Translations under genes and position numbers: made by a program | NCBI GenBank assembly: GCA_000934665.2 | Contig: KZ539295.1 | Span: 1 to 36,333, forward strand | Direction of reading: 5' to 3' | DNA from: Catajapyx aquilonaris | Lineage: Eukaryota | DNA length: 36,333 nt | Notes under the pieces: generated by a model | Database searches by the model: none | What the model was told of the DNA's origin: nothing | Seen by the model: only the letters and a program-made list of their open reading frames with translations | Shown here: piece by piece, positions 22,842 to 34,820 of the stretch | Position numbering within the stretch: position 1 is the stretch's first letter | How the letters are laid out: each line of letters opens with the position of its first letter

Positions 22842-23544
22842 CTAACGGTCCAGATTATTCTGCTTCTCTGGTTTCCCTTCTGCTGTCCGCTTAGCTGCTT
22901 CTTCTTCTTCTACCACTGCTTCCTGGTTGTCATTTCTCAACGCCCAAGGTAGATGTCCTCGAACATGGTCCGTGAACATGCTGCTTGTGACATCCACTGG
23001 GCCATGGGTACGACGAACATGGTCGATAACCCAGGATGTTTTATTGTGGTAGGTCACCCTTTCCAGCAACATCTTCTTCCCGTGGTGTCTTCTGATGAAG
23101 TGCCAGTGACGTCATCTTCTTCTTGTTGACTGCCATTGTTGTCTTCTTTCTCTTCCTCTCGTCCATTTTGTTCTTCTTCGTCTTCTTCTTCACTCCCAGA
23201 CCATTCTCCAAATAGTTCGAATAGAACATCCTTCCTCTTGAGTGGCAGAGAAACAGCCGACGTCTCTTCATCTTCTTCCTCGCTGGAAGATGGACCAAAG
23301 ACTGCTCGAAACCTCTTCCTCGTCGGTGGAGAGTAAGGACCTGGTGTGATTCTTCATCTTCAGTCCAGTCGTCAAATAGAAGGACTCCCACCTTCTTCTT
23401 CCACAGCTTATTAATGGCCAATGGCTGACCTGGTGATAGGTTGGGAGGAGATGGCGGAGATGAAGGCACAGGAGAAGCACCGGGCAGTTGAGCTAGCCTT
23501 TTACGCTGCCCCCCTCTCTGCCTCGACTTACTTTTCTTCCCCAT
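22842..23544 (-). pseudogene. Accessory non-env ORF between pol and PPT, basic N-terminus and acidic repeats, frameshifted
   Basis: MGKKSKSRQRGGQRKRL, a P/S-rich stretch and LFDDWTEDEE; then in a shifted frame VFGPSSSEEEDEE and LFGEWSGSEEEDEEE; the tail is ORF 22842..23072. Confidence 0.55.
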
Positions 23545-23574
23545 TTTCGAGACTGTAATTCTTTCTCGAATTCT

Positions 23575-26215
23575 GATTTGCAAAATTTTGCAACGTCTTG
23601 TGTCATTCCTCTCCATGTGTATGATTTCTGAATTTTGCGTATCATTTTCTTCACCCCAAGGTGTGCAGAAAAGGGAGGATTGTGATTTTGCTCCAAAATT
23701 TTGTATACCATAGACCTTGGCACAACTAAGACTTCATTGTTTCTCATTTTGGAAAAGAGAATGTCTCCTTCCACAAAATAATTGTTGAAACAAGGGACAC
23801 TCACTGAGAGATTTTTGAGAATGGACAGACAAGTCCTGTCTTCCCTTTGTTTAATAATTTTAGGACGATCCCAAACTACAGAAAATTCAGTTGTGACTGG
23901 GCAAACCGGAATGCGACAGAGAGCATCCACATGAGGCATGGATTTACCCGGTTTGTGGATCACTTGAAAATTTTACTCTTGCAGAGTGAGAGACCAGCGA
24001 GCTAACCTGGATGTGGGATCCTTCAGGTTTATTAGCCACTTGAGACTGGCATGATCAGTGACTACCGTGAATTCTCTGCCATACAAATGACATCTGAACA
24101 TTCTTATGGCCCATACCACCCCTAAACATTCTCTTTCGGTGGTTGAATAATTTTTTTCCTGGCTTATTCAACTGCCCTGCTGACATACTCTAATGGGTGT
24201 ATCCCATCTTCAAATTGAGCAAGTGTAGCACCAATTGTAAAACCACTAGCGTCAGTGGAGAGAATGAAGGGTTTGGAATAGTCAGGACACCTCAAGACTG
24301 GGTAAGATTGTAAGGCATCACGTAAGGTTTTGAATGAAAGTTCTTGCTCAGGACCCCAAGAAATGGTTTGCTGACGTTTGGAAGATAGATTTCTTGTCAA
24401 CATAGTCAACGGTCTGGCAATAAATGCGAATTTCTTAATAAACCTTCTATAAAACCCTACTAATCCTAGGAATGCTCGTACATCTCTTACAGTTGTAGGA
24501 CGTGGACAGTTTTTTATCGCATCAATCTTTTTAGGATCGGGTTTAACACCTTCTCCAGTGACCACATGACCCAAGTATTTCACTTCCCTCTTCAAGAAGT
24601 GGCATTTGGACAACTTTAGTTTAAGACCAGCCGCCTTAAGTTTATCAAAAACCCGAGTAAGTCTGGACATGTGTACAGAAAGATTTTGAGAAAAAATGAT
24701 AACATCGTCTAAGTACACTAGACAAATTTCACTTTTTAACCCTGCCAGAGCTGTATCCATCAGCCTTTGAAAGGTAGACGGAGCATTGGCTAAACCAAAA
24801 GGCATTTTTCTGAACTGGTATCTGTGATTTGGTAGAGTAAATGCTGTTTTTTTCTTTATCTTCACTCCTTACAGGCACCTGCCAAAAGCCAGAGTGTAGA
24901 TCTAACGAAGAAAAATAAGCACAATTTCCAAGTTGGTTCAAAGTGTCTTCTATAGTGGGTAGAGGATAAACATCTCTTTTTGTTACACTATTGAGCTTCC
25001 TGTAATCCACACAGAATCTTAGAGAACCATCTGGTTTCTGAACTAAGACGACAGGAGCTGCCCATGGACTCTTTGTTTCTTCGATGATACCAGAGTTGAG
25101 CATATCGCATATGCATTTCTTTACCTCCTGCGACTGTGATTATGGGATTTTATATGGTCTGCAAGCAATTGGTCGTGCTTCACCCGTGTCAATGGTATGT
25201 TCTGTGAGTGAAGTGTTACCATATGGACCATTTTCTCCTTGGATAAGTTCTGAATAAGATTTAAGGAAGGTCATAAGGAAACTCTCTTCTTTTTCATTGA
25301 GACTTGATTTATCCAACTTTGACCAGTCCACAGGACTATTTGTCACTTCAATTTTTGGATGTGGGAGGCATGGAGTGGCCTTACCAACTATTGTATTAAT
25401 AGGTATCTGAATCTGGGAATTGGAAGTATTTAATACCATTATATATGTGTTACCGTCAAGAGAAGTAGTTACGGTGGTTGCAACTGTGAGACCTGGATGA
25501 TTGCTACCAACTGACTCGATGATCATGTCTTTATTTCCCAAAATTACGTTAATTTTTGCAGGAATAATATTGCTTCACAGCGAGGTGGAATCGGCATGTC
25601 ATCATTCCAATGTACTGTAGTACTCTGAGGAGTCTTTTCTCCTACTAACGGGATTAAGTCTCCACATATGTCTATTGCTTTCTTTGATAACAAGATGTTG
25701 ACGTGATAATAGTCTAAGAAATCGACTCCAATGATACCATCAATATCTGTACCAATGTTAATGTCAGAGACCCAAAAGTTGTGTTGTAGTTTATGACTAC
25801 CTATTGTTCGATTGAACCAGTAACAACCATACGATTTGAGTTTATCGCCAGTAGCACTAGACAGGTTAATGTTATCCTGTTCCTTGTAAGAACCATCTTG
25901 GTATGGTACAAAAGTAGGATTGATTATCGATACAGCACCACCCGTGTCGAGAAGAAAGCTTGCTGTTCTACCAGATATTAAAACATCTATTTTTGGAGAT
26001 GTTACACTAGTAATCAAGTGAATGAATGTTGGTTTGACAGACTGTGACTGCATACGGTTTTGATGAGGATTTTGTTGTCGTAACAGGTTATCCTGACTAA
26101 TCTGTACACTATGGCCCCCCTGATTGGATTCTATTGACGTGAGCTGTGAGGTTGTGAGGAGGGCCCCCTCACGTTTTCCGGACACCATTTTGCGTAATGT
26201 CCGACCGTATCCCAC
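23575..26215 (-). pseudogene. pol: Ty3/gypsy pol: protease, RT, RNase H, integrase Zn-binding N-terminus (frameshifts; IN core absent)
   Basis: LLDTGG (protease); SPWAAPVVLVQKPDGSLRFCVDYRKLN, LDLHSGFWQV, MPFGLANAPSTFQR and YLDD (RT); TDASG (RNase H); HNPPFSAHLG...WRGM..DV (IN). Domain order is PR-RT-RH-IN. Confidence 0.97.
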
Positions 26216-26440
26216 TTGTGGCAGACAATATTGTTCGGATGAGGACTACAGTTTCTGTGATGGTTTTGATAATTTCTCATCCCAAATGGGTTATCACGTG
26301 GGTACCTGGTTCCCTGTGGTCGATAAGGACTACCATATTCACCCTGATATGGAGAACCACCACGGCGAAAGCTGTTTTTTACGAGTGCGTTTTTGAAGGG
26401 ATCTCACCACTTTTTGCTAAGTTGAATGATAATGAATGAC
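26170..26440 (-). pseudogene. gag: gag C-terminus with zinc knuckle
   Basis: IVCHKWDTVGHYAKWCP is CX2CX4HX4C with the second Cys replaced by Trp; it overlaps the pol frame, which is -1 relative to gag. Confidence 0.8.
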
Positions 26441-26986: not shown

Positions 26987-28294
26987 TTATTTTCCCCCGC
27001 GTGTCCCCCGAGCCGCCCGAACACCTCGTGCATCACGATCCCCGCGACCACCTCGTCCACCTTGTCCACCACGACTCCCACGACCACCCCGACCATTGGC
27101 AGCATGGTCTGAGACTTGATATTGGATATCCGTTTGATAATCCTCCTGGACCCGATGTACATATTTAGATCCTGCCCATACTCGGTCAGGGGCCTTTTGA
27201 TGTATTTTAGAATTAGTGATTTGGAAACTGCAAAGGTCTGGCCTGAATTTAAATCTGAGTCTGTTGTATTCTGTAATGGCTTTGTCGTTAGCTTTGACTT
27301 GAGTAGAATCAAAGTTGATTAGATGAATCCCTTCCAATTTTTTTACTCGAGACAAGGCCACATAAGCTTGACCACAACAGAAAAGTGATGAGCCAATGTC
27401 CATAAGGGCACTGTCTAAGCTCAACCCCTGGCTCTTATGAATCGTGATGCCATATGCTATTGTTAATGGGAACTGTTTTCTATGAATGAATGCGTTTGCC
27501 ATAATTTGAAATTTGCTATTGACAGGTAGTAGGTCGTGTTCTAAACCGAAGGAAAATTTAATCATTATGGATTTAACTTTTTGTGGAGCATCGGGGTGGT
27601 ATGTCACACTGAGTACAGTACCAACTGCGCCGTTAACCAAGCCAAGAGTAACATCTATGTTCCTTCTCAACATTATTTTAGTTCCAAGTTTAACAGTAAT
27701 GGTTCGCTCCAAACCAGCTGTATTGGAACAATCATCTTCGTACTTTTTAAGTAGCTTGTCTACATGAGCTCGGACAGATCTGGAACAGTCCACCGAGTCT
27801 TCAGCTAGAAGTACAATTTCAGGAGTGTTGATGGTTTGAAGCACGGTTTCATTTAGGACTTTGCACATATGGCATGTAGGCAGGAAACAAATGGTATCTG
27901 GCGGCAGCTTTAGTAGGTAGTCAGCAATTTTTTGTAGTGTGCCAGTAGCATGTTTTGAGGGGATATTTATGATTCTGGTTTGAAGAACATGAATGTCATT
28001 TTTGGAAATGATTCCTAAGCGGACTCGTTGAAGCAATTGCACAAATCCATTATCATGTTGCTGCCTCATATTTATCGTTAGTTCGTCGTAAGTGAACAGA
28101 TCTCGCCACAGATTAACCGTGCAAAATGCGCCAAAGTGTTTTTCTGCATCCGCAGGGGAGAGAGTCTCAAAAATTGGATCTTGATGAACAGGTTGTAGCT
28201 GACATAAGTCTCCAAAGAACAAGATGTGCTTTCCTCCAAACCAGCCATTCTCTTCATCTGAAGTTGCATAAATTTCTGACAGACGTAAATGAAT
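26987..28294 (-). pseudogene. Helitron RepHel C-terminal half (Pif1 motifs III-VI) with an in-frame RGG tail
   Basis: [75 protein letters not shown]. The first 32 aa or so of ORF 26987..28393 come from the adjacent inverted repeat. Confidence 0.92.
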
Positions 28295-29080
28295 TATATC
28301 AAAAACTTTCCCTTCAGTAAAAAAAAAGAGAAGTAAGACCTCCGCGGCGGAATGAAAGTACTGAAACAAGGCAGGCGCACGTAAGACCTTCACCGATTGA
28401 TTTAAGCTGTACCATAGGTCTTACTCCAGCAATTTCCAATTCACTGCTCATGAAGTCTCCTTTCTGAAAACAAATTTGTGGAATTTCTGTCGTACTACCA
28501 GTTACTTCTAACTTAGCAGTACCAGTGTAGTGCAATGGTACTGCTATAAGTTAGCAGTAACTACAGACCTATAGTTAATAGTAATAATAGTACGACGAAA
28601 ATTCTGCCCATTAATTTTCCATGAGCCACTCCATATTAGTGTTCTTTGAAATTAGGAACTTCAATATTAAGCACATTGAATTTCTATGCGATTAGTGCGA
28701 ATTATTGCCATGAAACATTCATTCAGAATCGTCACCTCTTTGAGATGCTGATTTTAACTCTAACGTTTAATTTTTCACATATAAACGTTAATTGGTGAAT
28801 TTAAGAGGGTCTTTTTCGATTGGACCAAGTCTGTTAGAATGGGTTTAGTTNNNNNNNNNNNNNATAAAATCCTTCCTATACTGCTCTGAGTAGTTTGCAG
28901 CAGTCATTTTACGAGACGTTCCATACCGTACTTGAGAATTGCTTGAGTAAGACCTATGGTACAGCTTAAATCAATTGGTGAAGGTCTTACGTGCGCCTGC
29001 CTTGTTTCAGTACTTTCATTCCGCCGCGGAGGTCTTACTTCTCTTTTTTTCACTGAAGGGAATGTTTTTGACATAATTTC
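28291..29080. mobile_element. Foldback element with about 140-bp inverted arms
   Basis: 28291-28434 versus 28937-29080 are near-identical in reverse complement, with internal GTAAGACCT repeats; spans the N gap. Confidence 0.8.
28851..28863. other. Assembly gap (13 N)
   Basis: Run of N. Confidence 1.
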
Positions 29081-29269
29081 AGTTCTTCTTTGACAGTATA
29101 CGGAATAGGTACAATGATGCCTAATTTTAATATCATACATATTATTACATTATAATATTTTGAGTTCAGGAGACTGGAGTAGTCCCATGAGGACGACATT
29201 GGGATCACGAGGACTGGATGTTTTGAGATGACATTATCTGGATTGTGGAGAGAGGAAAGGCATTATGGA

Positions 29270-29820
29270 ATATTGTCATGGTACAGAGAGGGGGTGGGAC
29301 ACTAACCTCGGGAATTTGTGTGATGATTTTGGCTAGTAGATTTTGCAATGGCACAGAGAGAGAGAGGGGAGAGGGGGGATACTTACCTCACGAATTTTGA
29401 AAAGATTTTCTTGGTTTTGATAATAATGGTTTGAGGAGATTGGAGAAGGAGTTGATGGTTGTCGAGCAGGCAGGCAGGATCGTCAGGAAGTGTTTTGGGT
29501 CACAAGGACTGGAATTTAAGATTTGTCATGTCAATACTCTTAAGTAAGTAAAGGAGTTGCGGGGATTGCAATGGTACGGAGAGAGAGGGGAGAGGGGGAT
29601 ACTTACCTCACGAATTTTCAAAAGATTTTCTTTGTACTGTTTGATAATAGTTGAGGAGATAGGAGTAGGAGTTGATGGAGGTGGAAAAGGCAGGCAGGGA
29701 TCTCAGGAAGTGTTTGGAGTCCACAAAGTCTGGAATTTAATAGTTATCATTTCAATGATGCTGCCATTATAGGAATTGTAATGGAAATGGAATAGAGGGA
29801 TGTTGGGATACTAACCTCAG
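29270..29820 (-). repeat. Tandem repeat of about 220 bp with splice-site-like motifs
   Basis: Units start near 29343 and 29566; ACTTACCTC at 29381 and 29601; ACTAACCTC at 29301 and 29810. Confidence 0.85.
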
Positions 29821-29833
29821 TTTTCTTTGAGGT

Positions 29834-31111
29834 TTAGGTACGAAGAATCCGGTAGGGAGCTAAGAAGAGTGCCACTGCATCCTTCATGTGGGTTTTCGTA
29901 CTAGTCTCAATACTGACGCTCTGGTCATTCACATGCAACCATTCCTTGCCCTCTCGCACCACGGCGGTGTAGTGCCCACTTAACAAATTGTTCCCCTGGT
30001 GACAAATGATCGCTGTGCACACAAATCTGTCCGATGCAATTCTGACATCGTCAGGATTGAATTCTGAGATGCCAGTAGTCACCTTTCGTGCTCTTTCATC
30101 ATACCGGACCAGATGGAGTAATACACACCCGGTGACCTCCTGGATGCTGTAGGTTGTCACTGGGCAACTGCATGCACATACGGCGCACTGCAGTTGGATG
30201 TCCACCTTCTTCAATAGGCTATCGAATGTAATATCAGTGGCTTGACTTGGAACTGCAACATGTAGGCAGCGCTGCATTCCTGAGGTTTCGAGAGGAATGG
30301 AGTGGCATGTGGTGCAGTGTTCTTCAGTCTGGATCCGGTGAGTGCCCCACCGCTGAAGAGGTTCTGGTAACCTTTCAATGAGAAAGTCCAAGAACTCGAG
30401 AGCGTCCTGCTGTACATCTCCAGTGAAGGGTTCTCCCACAGCTCGTCGCACATCCTGCGTCGATGGCAATACCACATTGCCTGCCTTTGTTGTTTTTTGC
30501 CGCTTTGCTGCTGCAGACTTTTGCGGGCGGTGTCGTGTGAGCGCCTTCTGCATCTCCACAATGATGTCACTCCCCGCCCTCTTCGAGTTTAACAGCAGTC
30601 GAAAGTCCGATTGGGCGAAAAGACATACCAATGCGGCGTTTGCGTAGCAGGAAACCTTAATCGGGCCAGGATTGGAGAACCCTCGAATCTTGACGGTATC
30701 ACTGCTTACAGAAGCTGCAATAATTCGACGCTTCAAGGCCGGTACAGGAAGGGGAGGTATGGAGCGAGTTTCTCGGAGACGGTTGTACTCAAGGATGCAG
30801 CTCCTGTCGGCCTTGATGCACTTTGATTCCAAGTGTAAAAGAAAGAGGGTGTCTAGTGTCTTTACACGTGATAATGCCACGTACGCCATCCCACTCGCAA
30901 ACACAGATTCACTCAAGTCGACCACTGCTGATTCGAGGGTCAGGCCTTGTGACTTGTGAATGGTAATGGCGTATGCAAGTACGAGTGGGAATTGCTTCCT
31001 TTCCACATAAATGTTTGCACCAATTTCGAATTTCACGCTGCACCTCTCTATAGACTTCTCCTCGGAAGGACAGCTATCAAAATTTATGATGGGACGCGTC
31101 AAAATCTTCAA
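29834..31111 (-). CDS. Pif1-helicase C-terminus fused to a USP (peptidase C19) deubiquitinase domain; 5' truncated
   Basis: Helicase motifs [20 protein letters not shown] and [13 protein letters not shown] Cys box [37 protein letters not shown] pairs, LLHLVRY and His box [17 protein letters not shown]...WLHVND. Confidence 0.9.
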
Positions 31112-31819
31112 TCCAGAAAAAAAACTATTGAATAGAGGAACGTGTCAACGGAAAACTACAAGACAATGTTCATCTCCCAACTCACTCCAAACTAGTTCTG
31201 AACATTAATAGAACAAATCGACTTGTTCAGTAGGATTAAATAATCCACACATATCTTAGCAACATAGACAATGACGACCTTCCAGCAGCGTTGCCATAGC
31301 TGAAACATTAGGCCAACAACTATTGTTATTAACCAAAAATATGGCGAGGTGGTAAAATAAGTATTGACGTTTCTAGGTTATGGCGTCATGAACAAAAATG
31401 AAGTAATGACAGGAAAAATACGAGGTAAAAAAATCACAGCTCCAATCCTGTAGCAGTGGGAACTGAGATTTTGAACATAGATCCGCACCATCCCACTGCA
31501 CCTTCGGCCCTTTGATGAAGAAACCAAATTCCGAATAGTTATTGAGCAAAGAAATTGAGACATATTTTTTGGTGGTTTAAATTTTTTTGCGGCGTTTTGA
31601 AGAGGAATTAAGTAAAAGTGTAAATGGTAGGAAATCAAGTCACGACGGTGGGGATCTGTGTTCAAAATTTGAAAGCTCTACCTACAGCAGAACTTGAGTT
31701 AGAGCGAATAAAAAAAAACGTAACAAGAAGAACAACAAGAAGAACAAGTAGGAAAAATTCATTGTTGAAACATTGTTGAAATCTATGCTACGGTCTTACT
31801 TAAGGGCTATCGCCCTTAA

Positions 31820-34800
31820 AATGTACATCAGGGTGAGGTTGGAGACCATGGACACCTCGTCGATGATGAACAGTACTACGTTCTTGAGCTCTCCTCTCAT
31901 GAGCTGTAGGACTTCATCTGATAGAGGACGATATTTTGGGGTCCTCCCATGTTCTATAGGTAACTGCAGGAGTCGATGAATAGTGAGGCCATTGACATTG
32001 AATGCGGCGATGCCTGTCGGAGCGCTAATGGCGACCATCTTGTTCACCTCCTGACTGACCCAGGCTTGAATGGTGTGAATTAGGTGACTTTTTCCAGTTC
32101 CACCAGTTCCATTGCAAAACTTTCTCATGATTGTTGTGTCATTCGTTATTAGGACATGTTGAACATACTTGAACACTCTTCTCTGATCACTGTTCAATAT
32201 GTTAATCATGTGCTGTACATCTACCTCAACATGGGCGATTTGATCCACCTCACGAAGATCATACATAGCATTGGCTGCCTCCACGGGCTGGAACTCTAAA
32301 GGGTTATCAGGACAGTCCCCATCGACTTCTTTACAATGTCCAGCTTCTTCCAACTCGGCTACCTTTGCTTGGATTAGTTGAAAGGCAGTGTCAATCCTTT
32401 TCTGAAAGTCACACTGAAGCTCACTATAACTCAAGCCTTCCTCTATGTCATGTTTAGCCGCACGGAAAGCATCAGTATAGGTGGAGAAGTCAGAAATTAG
32501 TTCGCCTAGCTTTCGCCATGGTGTGAACAGAAGGATTATGGAAGAGAAGAACTGTTCTGGGAACTGATGCACGTCATATCTGTAGTGATTGATCAGATAT
32601 GGGTGTGATCTTTTAATCAGGAATCGTTCCTCACTTATTTGATAAAATTCTACTTGGGATGACGTAGGTTTGTGGATGACTATATCGAACCATTTAGTTA
32701 AATTATACAGGTTCATGTGTTCTAGCTGTGTTGGCCGATTAGGATAATGATCATCCACCCACGACTCATAGAAAATGTTGGTAGATTGTGGGTCCAGTTC
32801 GTCTAATTCCTTCCTGGCCTTGACTCTGCGGTTCCTATGCATGTTAACATCTATCCAGCGAATCGTGGTGTCAGGATCCGTACCATACAGAGGAATGCCC
32901 AAGAGAGTGTCACTAGCCTCGAGTGCACCGCATTCTCTGTGGCTCAAGGCACGCAGGCCAACATTGTAGAGACGACTACACAGATTTATGGTAGAGTATG
33001 AATCAGCAACGTGACCTTTTTCGCTCTTTGTCGTGTACTTGGTCACATAATAATTAAGGACAGAACTTTTTTCGCCCACAAATTGTAAGTCCATATTACC
33101 ATTCCATGCCAACATGATTGCAGGGTTGTAGTCATTAATGTGGGCTTCCTCCTTGGATCTTTTAATATTGTACAGCCTTGAATTAGAGGACAGAGTTTTT
33201 CTAGCAGCTATGGATTCTGTGACGTCCCTTATGATCATCTCGTCTGTTACGGGCCTAGGGAATCCAAATCGACAAACTTTCATGAAACCTGTCGTGGTTT
33301 TTTTTGTTCCTTCTGCAGTAGTTGTTATGGTGGTGAGTCTGATATTTGGTAACACGCTCATGTAATGTTGGGCATGTCTGTTTGTTAGGAATGAGACAGG
33401 TAACATATTTAGAAATAAATTCTGTGACGCTTTCAGTTGACGATACTCCTAGGACGGGGGCGTCTTTAACCCACAACATGAGGTGGAAATGTTGTGCTCC
33501 GCGAGATTGATACTCGCGTCTCCAGAAGTATTGATGAACGGGTCCTAATGGCTCATATTTGGACAGAATAAAGTGTAGCATAGCCTTGAAGTAGTTGTCA
33601 ATGAATCTTGATGCTGAGACTGGATCAAGAGCTACTAACTCACTGGTGGTCTTGTTTGCGAAATCCGGACCGTTGACTTGACGAATGAAGTCGCCTAGTT
33701 CATTCCAACTCCATTCGCTGGGACTAATAGTGAGAAATCAAGTGGCAGGACCGTAATTCTGGGTCATGCAATTTACGTCATTTCTTGGTTTAGCCCAATA
33801 TTGTTCGGTGTTTCTCAATCTCGAGAAAATGGCCGTCAGGTCTCCTTCTAATTCATCAATCTTAAGCATCTGCATGTATCTAGCTGTAGTGAGTCTTTCT
33901 TTGTGCTTAATGATATTGAGTTTATAAAATATGCCAGCACTCAGCTGTCGGATGTTAGCATTATTCAATAAATAGAACAAGTATTGTTGATTTAGTCTCG
34001 ATTTTGAGTGGCTGGACATAAGTTTGGTTTTTATGAATTCAGAAGAAGTTAACTTTACTGACCTCTGCTGAAACTGTCCATATTTTCCACATGGGAATAA
34101 ATCTGGGAAGCATTTTACGTCAAGGTCCTTGTCACGAGAATCTATTGGGGCTGCATTCACCTTGACCATTTGATACAATGCTGTAGCTGTCTCATTGAGT
34201 TTTTTTTCATGAAGAGGATAGATAGTGAACTGTTAATATCTATTTTCAAGCTCAGAGGTAACCTGAGTTAAGAGGGCTGGCTCCATCTCCAGTGTCTCTT
34301 CCACTTCATGTTGTAAATCAGGAGACATGTTGGCGAGCAGTTCTTCGGGACGTGAAGGTAGCTGGATATTTGCATAAAGATGGTTAATCTGGTGAAGTAC
34401 TCGGAGGGTTGAATGAACGTGGTTAACGTCTACTAAATTCTCCCATATAACTTTGCTCCTAGTAGCAGCGCCTCTCACCAGAATGTAGAGTTCAGGATTG
34501 TCACAGAGGGCTTCCTTTGGTTTTGGAATTTTCCGCAAAGTCTGCTGCAATGGCAATGGCGACCTATGACTTTCTGGTGGAAGGTGCGACCTATGACTTT
34601 CTTTACCTTGTGCCTGTTTGGAATATTTTTATTTCCAATAGATGTAACCACTTAGAAAGCTTTGGCCCTCTGGATTAATATTTTTTCATACTCATTTAAA
34701 TGTTCAATTTCATGTGGACGATCCGGAACGAGAAGTTGATTCATAATGCAGGTGGCTGGCATGGCATTGTGCCTAAATTTCTGCAGACAGTATTGACAAA

Positions 34801-34820
34801 TGAGGAGCTTGCCAGCAAAA
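31820..34820 (-). pseudogene. Helitron/Helentron RepHel N-terminal part: Cys-rich region, HUH-Y2 Rep, helicase motifs I-II (frameshifts and stops)
   Basis: ICQYC...P..C..NQL (about 34740-34810), DLDVKCFPDLFPCG, RLRNTEQYW, REYQSRGAQHFHLMLW (HUH), CRFGFPRP, INDYNP, YVTKYTTK (Y2), GTGGTGKS (Walker A), APTGIAA and IIDEVSMV (Walker B). Confidence 0.95.

Follow-up and report, generated by a model that had tools for sequence, protein, structure and literature searches.

The window analysed here is the whole stretch of 36,333 nucleotides of contig KZ539295.1 (assembly GCA_000934665.2, positions 1 to 36,333 of the forward strand) from Catajapyx aquilonaris. Its minus strand carries an open reading frame (ORF) in which the tail of a Pif1-type helicase, of the kind found in the Rep-helicase (RepHel) proteins of Helitron rolling-circle transposons, is followed by a deubiquitinase domain of the USP class (peptidase C19). 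From stop to stop this USP frame spans 29834..31144, with the stop codon at 29834-29836, and encodes 436 amino acids. The original prediction, made from the letters of the DNA, had described a stop-free frame of 425 codons at this place; the open frame is real, but its actual length is slightly greater. By a rough estimate, the chance of 436 open codons is (61/64)^436 or about 1e-9, which is far beyond chance. The first methionine was found at about residue 85, within helicase motif VI, and no methionine lies upstream of it. The coordinates of all features are collected in Table 1.

The N-terminal part of the frame was analysed with Pfam and BLASTP. In Pfam, residues 56-100 gave weak matches to helicase C-terminal domains (Herpes_Helicase, E 0.0019; UvrD_C_2, E 0.0028), both under the curated cut-offs. 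The helicase nature of this part is secure because BLASTP matched it to two other helicases. With the other Pif1 frame of the window, 50/87 residues were identical (57%) over motifs V-VI with an E-value of 9e-30, and with the public Rep-Hel-USP protein P0001, which has 1826 amino acids, 60 of 87 residues were identical. Of the helicase, only the end of the 2B domain and motifs V-VI are present. The ATPase core is absent, and an internal gap was observed relative to the helicase of the neighbouring RepHel. The HUH Rep endonuclease is likewise absent from the frame, which starts at the position of residue 1347 of P0001. No apurinic/apyrimidinic (AP) endonuclease domain was found in the USP frame with Pfam, and the mark of a Helentron in the strict sense is lacking here.

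The original prediction had proposed that Pif1 motifs V-VI are joined to a full USP/C19 domain, with the Pfam profile UCH (PF00443) as a means of verification. This was borne out by the helicase matches and by a UCH match to residues 157-427 with an E-value of 5.2e-17 and 62.7 bits, above the cut-off of 23.9 and across nearly the whole profile (4-253 of 254). When the frame was compared with solved structures by phmmer, 25 distinct PDB sequences were obtained at E<=0.01, and the Cys, QQDA, GHYTA and FND boxes aligned with those of human USP2 (E 1e-7). The codons that had been assigned beforehand to the catalytic Cys, the His and the Asn-Asp pair proved to have the right coordinates, and the residues align with the USP2 motifs. 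The QQDA box and the two CxxC pairs, which had also been seen earlier, are present, the pairs being C277/C280 and C320/C323.

The fold of the domain was predicted with AlphaFold2 for residues 146-436, using an alignment of 81 rows. The model had a mean predicted local distance difference test score (pLDDT) of 91.1 and a predicted template modelling score (pTM) of 0.89. With this model, Foldseek gave 462 matches in the PDB at E<=0.001, and at the top stood USP2, USP35, USP46 and USP21 with E-values of 1e-19 to 1e-20. The best match was USP2 (6dgf_A) with an E-value of 6.8e-20 and a template modelling (TM) score of 0.71. In the predicted structure, the USP frame has the palm-thumb-fingers fold with a four-cysteine zinc ribbon.

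The architecture of helicase and USP was then followed in public proteins. The search among longer proteins gave 151 matches at E<=0.001 from 7830 candidates. Among the best 120 of them, PF00443 stood beside Pif1 domains in 12 proteins, and P0008 has the related UCH_1 (PF13423). When 12 of these proteins were rescanned with Pfam, the UCH domain followed the helicase on its C-terminal side in every one. Four of them (P0001, P0007, P0012 and P0013) also have Helitron_like_N; an endonuclease domain was found in none of these 12 USP-bearing relatives. The search among proteins of near length added 13 more Hel-UCH fragments among the 120 matches listed. In an exhaustive HMMER scan of 1.84 billion proteins with the USP part alone, 303 proteins matched at E<=0.001 and 17 at 1e-10, the best with 30% identity. 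Pif1 or Helitron domains were present in nine of the best 60 of these 303 matches, including P0267 (2245 amino acids) and P0248 (2998 amino acids, with two USPs).

Both the USP and the helicase queries are matched by 45 of the retrieved public proteins, and the full Rep-Hel-USP members have 1800-3000 amino acids. Some of the relatives combine DUF6570, Helitron_like_N, PIF1 and UCH in Pfam. P0001 is colinear with the USP frame through helicase, linker and USP, with 32% identity over 492 columns (E 3e-56). The hosts include the whitefly Bemisia tabaci (P0248), the ant Linepithema humile and the sponge Dysidea avara. In another ant, Ooceraea biroi, the protein P0142 has a partial USP stretch that was detected only in the two-query script search. 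That a Helitron lineage encodes its own USP, as originally predicted, is supported by the wide recurrence of colinear Hel-USP and Rep-Hel-USP proteins. As separate observations, the RepHel proteins P0024 and P0029, one of them from Clytia hemisphaerica, showed phmmer matches to the USP part in their N-terminal regions, where Pfam found no UCH at E<=0.001; these matches may be due to chance or to a degenerate, USP-like domain that precedes Rep. P0286 has UCH together with Peptidase_C48 and no helicase.

The active-site residues were compared in an alignment of 132 USP domains with 38 helicase-linked rows; many of the domains are fragmentary. The catalytic Cys was found in 23 of the 27 filled positions of the helicase-linked rows and was replaced by Ser in the other four (P0002_1, P0004_1, P0128_1 and P0248_1), and the His was kept in 33/38. 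The zinc-binding Cys residues were kept in 37-38 of the 38 helicase-linked rows and in 89-92 of the 93 other rows. Tandem USP domains occur in P0002, P0004, P0123 and P0248. In P0002 and P0248, the only tandem proteins with a second domain aligned at this position, the first USP has the Ser and the second keeps the Cys. Judged from these residues, the tandem USPs of P0002 and P0248 could be a pseudo-enzyme paired with an enzyme.

The USP frame is surrounded by the two halves of another RepHel gene. When P0001 was mapped onto the window with tblastn, residues 127-1120 matched 34807..31820 in three frames, residues 1120-1472 matched 28294..27215, and residues 1347-1823 matched 31114..29861. Four further full-length proteins mapped onto the window in the same way. 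The two halves of the neighbouring helicase meet at residue 1120 of P0001, and the neighbouring RepHel resumes past the insert between them without losing a residue. It is a different element because it resumes beyond the insert with motifs V-VI of its own. The original prediction had taken this frameshifted RepHel for the N-terminal part of the USP protein, which has to be withdrawn: the mapping of P0001 and the neighbour's own motifs V-VI, 57% identical to those of the USP frame, show a separate element.

The neighbouring RepHel frame itself ends, at 26987-27200 on the minus strand, in a Gly-Arg-rich (RGG-like) low-complexity tail and not in a protease or endonuclease domain. Pol fragments of a long terminal repeat (LTR) retrotransposon follow the split gene immediately on its downstream side. 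The whole region is a transposon nest.

The neighbouring helicase gene is interrupted at a T-run by the insert, which is about 3.5 kb long and was examined for its ends and repeats. At the 5' junction a terminal palindrome directly follows the T-run, and the 5' part of the insert is a very high-copy repeat. Two tandem units of about 220 bp are located 3' of the stop codon of the USP frame. Within 29343-29830, each of these units resembles a mini-exon flanked by splice signals close to the consensus, with AG before and GTAAGT or GTTAGT after it; by eye, no open frame through a 220-bp unit was seen. The 3' end is formed by an inverted-repeat element, with 119 nt at 97% complementarity plus 35-nt outer arms, or 95.8% over 143 nt. 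It looks like a foldback or miniature inverted-repeat transposable element (MITE) with arms of 148 bp, and it encloses a 13-N assembly gap (28851-28863), the sole assembly gap of the window. A joint of 29070 to 31783 in the Logan contigs, which could be taken for the adjacent ends of a shorter family member, was not relied on, its shorter side having 25 matching letters.

These features were compared with those described for Helentrons and their short relatives HINE and DINE-1 (Mob DNA 2014, PMC4067079). The described features are a T-run boundary, insertion at TT, a 5' palindromic subterminal sequence, internal tandem repeats and abundant short relatives. The insert resembles them in its T-run, its apparent TT target, its internal tandem repeats, the very high copy number of its ends and a palindrome that lies 2-4 nt from the 5' end. 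It differs at its 3' end, where there is a 148-bp inverted repeat and where neither a short hairpin nor a subterminal repeat of 12-15 bp to match was found. Because the T-run, the TT insertion, the 5' palindrome, the tandem repeats and the abundant short relatives match Helentron/HINE features, we read the insert as one non-autonomous element. It would be an internally deleted element that kept its ends and the tail of the transposase gene and entered the neighbouring RepHel at a TT site.

The abundance of the frame and its flanks was estimated from Logan contigs of four runs of one sample, whose depth is a poor measure of copy number. The summed word depth was about 80-350 over the USP frame, versus 10^4 to 10^5 in the flanking repeats; over 28864-29079, which includes one arm of the inverted repeat, it was 68,000-287,000, and behind 29070 the loose ends were diverse. 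The contigs with at most 6 differences from the USP frame, some of them identical to it, had word depths of 63-148, and contigs matching the flanking RepHel with 0-1 differences had 30-45. Other contigs were only 84-91% identical to the USP frame. These values point to a small number of recent copies in addition to older ones.

The local copy cannot be autonomous because Rep is absent and most of the helicase is missing. The USP frame is not a working transposase and is probably a relic. We infer that it is still open because the copy is young and not because it is functional here.

Table 1. Features of the transposon nest around the USP frame, in positions of the window.
Feature	Position	Strand	Basis
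436-codon open frame, 5'-truncated C-terminal remnant (probable) of a RepHel-USP transposase gene	29837..31144	minus	ORF list, Pfam, tblastn, alignment to P0001
Pif1-type helicase remnant (2B domain end and motifs V-VI)	30773..31114	minus	Pfam, BLASTP
USP/UCH (peptidase C19) catalytic domain, ORF residues 157-427	29864..30676	minus	Pfam, USP2 alignment, AlphaFold2, Foldseek
Codon of catalytic Cys166, V-S-C-Y-A-N Cys box	30647..30649	minus	USP2 alignment, conserved columns
Four zinc-ribbon Cys of the fingers subdomain, C277/C280 and C320/C323	30176..30316	minus	Alignment of USP rows
Codon of catalytic His391, G-H-Y-T-A box	29972..29974	minus	USP2 alignment, conserved columns
Codons of Asn406-Asp407; Asn406 is the third triad residue, aligned to the USP2 FND motif	29924..29929	minus	USP2 alignment, conserved columns
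Insert of about 3.5 kb splitting the neighbouring helicase gene at a T-run, contains the USP fragment	28295..31819	minus	tblastn with P0001
20-nt terminal palindrome, 8-bp stem and 4-nt loop, directly past the T-run of the insert's 5' junction	31800..31819	minus	DNA fold, -7.8 kcal/mol
Very high-copy repeat, 5' part of the insert	31348..31819		Logan contigs, summed word depth 8,000-61,000
Two tandem units of about 220 bp, 3' of the stop codon	29343..29756		Spacing 220-221; 83% identity over 199 nt
Inverted-repeat element forming the insert's 3' end, arms 28292-28439 and 28932-29078	28292..29078		Self-comparison, Logan contigs
Neighbouring RepHel pseudogene, N-terminal part: DUF6570, Rep, helicase motifs I-II; in-frame stops and frameshifts	31820..34807	minus	Pfam, tblastn
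Neighbouring RepHel, C-terminal helicase part; no USP after it	27104..28294	minus	Pfam, tblastn
LTR retrotransposon pol fragments directly downstream of the split RepHel	23493-26245	minus	Pfam
Aspartyl protease of the LTR pol	25544-26245	minus	
Reverse transcriptase and RNase H of the LTR pol	24164-24868	minus	
Integrase zinc domain of the LTR pol	23493-23972	minus	

Taken together, our results make it likely that the frame is what remains of the 3' end of a transposase gene of the HLE2 type (Helitron2/Helentron clade) whose Rep-helicase protein ends in a USP. The USP frame would correspond to roughly the last 480 of the 1800-2200 codons of such a gene, and the Rep-helicase of this lineage would carry a C-terminal USP instead of, or without, the classical Helentron AP endonuclease. 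On the sequence evidence, we assign the frame to the Rep-Hel-USP lineage because its alignment with P0001 is colinear, its helicase has its closest match in P0001, its Cys box agrees and it groups accordingly in a tree of full-length domains. Where ordinary USPs have N-T-C-Y, the Cys box of the query reads S-C-Y-A-N and contains extra residues, as is typical of helicase-linked USPs. The full-length-only tree comprised 67 rows, namely the query, 43 rows from the first side of the larger tree of the 132 USP domains and 23 from its second side. In this tree the query grouped with the helicase-linked side against the 23 others, with a support of 97 in the Shimodaira-Hasegawa-like approximate likelihood-ratio test (SH-aLRT). 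The two groups had been defined on the larger tree, which makes their separation partly circular and leaves the placement of the query unaffected.

Several results weigh against this reading. In the 132-row tree, 37 of the 38 helicase-linked rows fell on one side of 76 rows (SH-aLRT 95), and the query was placed on the opposite side, where its basal position, next to the helicase-linked P0133 and to USPs without a helicase match, is unresolved. Its end branch in this tree is long (1.09). Profiles built from the two sides scored the query at 190.5 and 182.5 bits, which are barely apart, and the best relatives are only 27-34% identical. That the USP domain belongs to one common clade of Helitron USPs is therefore not a robust result. 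Among the paralogous contigs, the 14 listed variant sites in the frame (357 further sites exist) comprised nine replacement and five silent changes and gave no sign of purifying selection among the local copies, the sites being too few and too selective a subset for an estimate of selection. As to the insert as one element, its ends are two separate very high-copy repeats with diverse inner flanks, and the assembly gap lies inside it. When a partner of the 5' palindrome or of the subterminal repeat was sought at the 3' side, only weak alignments with scores of 21-22 were obtained, and self-BLAST found no further copies of the insert ends within the window. Finally, no assay of any Helitron USP was found in the full-text literature, bioRxiv supplements and figures aside.

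Other explanations of the frame were weighed against the remnant of a Rep-Hel-USP gene. A local chance deletion could have joined a Helitron to a host USP gene, and the original prediction had named such a one-off junction as the outcome that would speak against it. The uncertain position of the query USP relative to the Helitron USP clade in the 132-row tree would fit this. However, the same order and linker are found in 45 of the retrieved proteins, from unrelated sources, the alignment to P0001 runs colinearly across the junction, and the Cys-box signature is shared. Because colinear Hel-USP and Rep-Hel-USP proteins recur, the fusion is not an accident of this locus, and the chance junction was rejected as hardly credible on account of the recurrent architecture and the colinear alignment. 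We also regard it as very improbable that the open frame is an exapted transposon fragment, that is a host gene or exon, or one in the making, that gives a free-standing deubiquitinase. The 436 codons are fully open, and a pyrimidine tract followed by AG lies at about 31106-31135, just upstream of the start of homology. The frame sits within transposon debris, however, and appears to be multi-copy with diverged copies; it has no upstream methionine, and the listed variants are without an excess of silent changes.

A further explanation accepts the fusion and assigns another function to the USP, either as a ubiquitin-binding or pseudo-enzyme module or as a protease for self-processing of the RepHel polyprotein, and not as a deubiquitinase acting on other proteins. 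The Ser in place of the catalytic Cys in the first domain of the tandem relatives points in this direction, and cleavage into subunits has been raised as a possible role for the Helentron OTU protease (PMC4067079). Against it, the Cys, the His and the Asn or Asp are kept in the local domain and in most single-USP relatives, and no Gly-Gly-type site was seen by eye in the linker between helicase and USP. We consider this explanation unlikely.

The intact relatives probably use the domain as a deubiquitinase, by analogy with the Helentron proteases discussed below. The tethered USP of these relatives would strip ubiquitin or a ubiquitin-like modifier at the transposition complex. Its substrates may be the transposase itself or, at the transposition intermediate, proteins of host replication and repair, and deubiquitination would spare the transposase or the host factors from proteasomal degradation. 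We give catalytic deubiquitinase activity in the intact members about an even chance. The protease classes among the best 120 of the 151 longer-protein matches were USP in 12 proteins (plus P0008 with UCH_1), OTU in eight, Herpes_teg_N (tegument-like VTD) in two and the Ulp1 Peptidase_C48 in two. A broader proposal, which we put forward tentatively and hold to be somewhat less probable than its opposite, is that cysteine proteases of at least four unrelated classes have become joined to RepHel, or placed next to it, in HLE2 elements and that the removal of ubiquitin or ubiquitin-like marks is generally required for transposition.

The local sequence is a dead fragment of little importance; of more interest is the family from which it stems. 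Transposons of the Helitron type repeatedly carry their own deubiquitinases, and in this family the enzyme would be of the USP type, in the position of the endonuclease and sometimes as a pair of a Cys-less and a Cys-bearing domain, a putative active deubiquitinase with a substrate logic of its own. An active USP class and its substrate would show how such elements evade the ubiquitin-dependent control of the host. The compact USP core of 291 residues may also serve as a minimal model enzyme.

The predicted USP core was compared with the cores of human USP2, USP21 and USP46. It shares with them the predicted fold (TM about 0.7), the triad, the QQDA box and the zinc ribbon. The identity, however, is only about 17-22%; the core is compact and fused to a helicase, and three extra residues lie between the oxyanion Asn and the catalytic Cys.

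The central idea, a USP in a Helitron, is not new because the HELIANO study (Nucleic Acids Res 2024, PMC11417382), the sole article in the full-text searches to list the domain, has UCH in HLE2 elements, and the novelty left open by the original prediction has to be given up. In that article, UCH is one of 20 further domains that Helitron-like elements stably carry, and Table S11 lists PF00443. UCH is described there as almost exclusive to HLE2 and enriched in the subgroups c and d, whose members come mostly from lungfish and axolotl. According to the same article, 17 domains, all but the few that are named, are encoded in ORFs other than RepHel, by implication including UCH. The sequences studied here agree with the HLE2 elements of HELIANO in having PF00443 downstream of RepHel in a DUF6570-bearing group. 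They differ in that many single-ORF predictions join the UCH in frame to the helicase and that the hosts are a whitefly, ants and a sponge; the local copy is a fragment only. What is new is small: the in-frame fusion in place of a separate ORF, the arthropod and sponge hosts, the tandem USP pairs, and the occurrence of four protease classes among the RepHel relatives of one search.

Helentrons are known to carry OTU proteases (PMC4067079), and the tegument-like (VTD) deubiquitinases of zebrafish Helentrons cleave ubiquitin and NEDD8 substrates (Nat Commun 2022, PMC9741609). The role proposed for the Helentron VTD in the latter article is to shield transposition proteins from degradation. The activity of the VTD is experimental (PMC9741609), whereas the USP described here is known from its sequence and predicted structure. 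Both have in common that a papain-fold deubiquitinase is built into a rolling-circle transposase. In contrast to the OTU and VTD enzymes, the domain found here belongs to the USP class and occupies, at the C-terminus, the position of the AP endonuclease.

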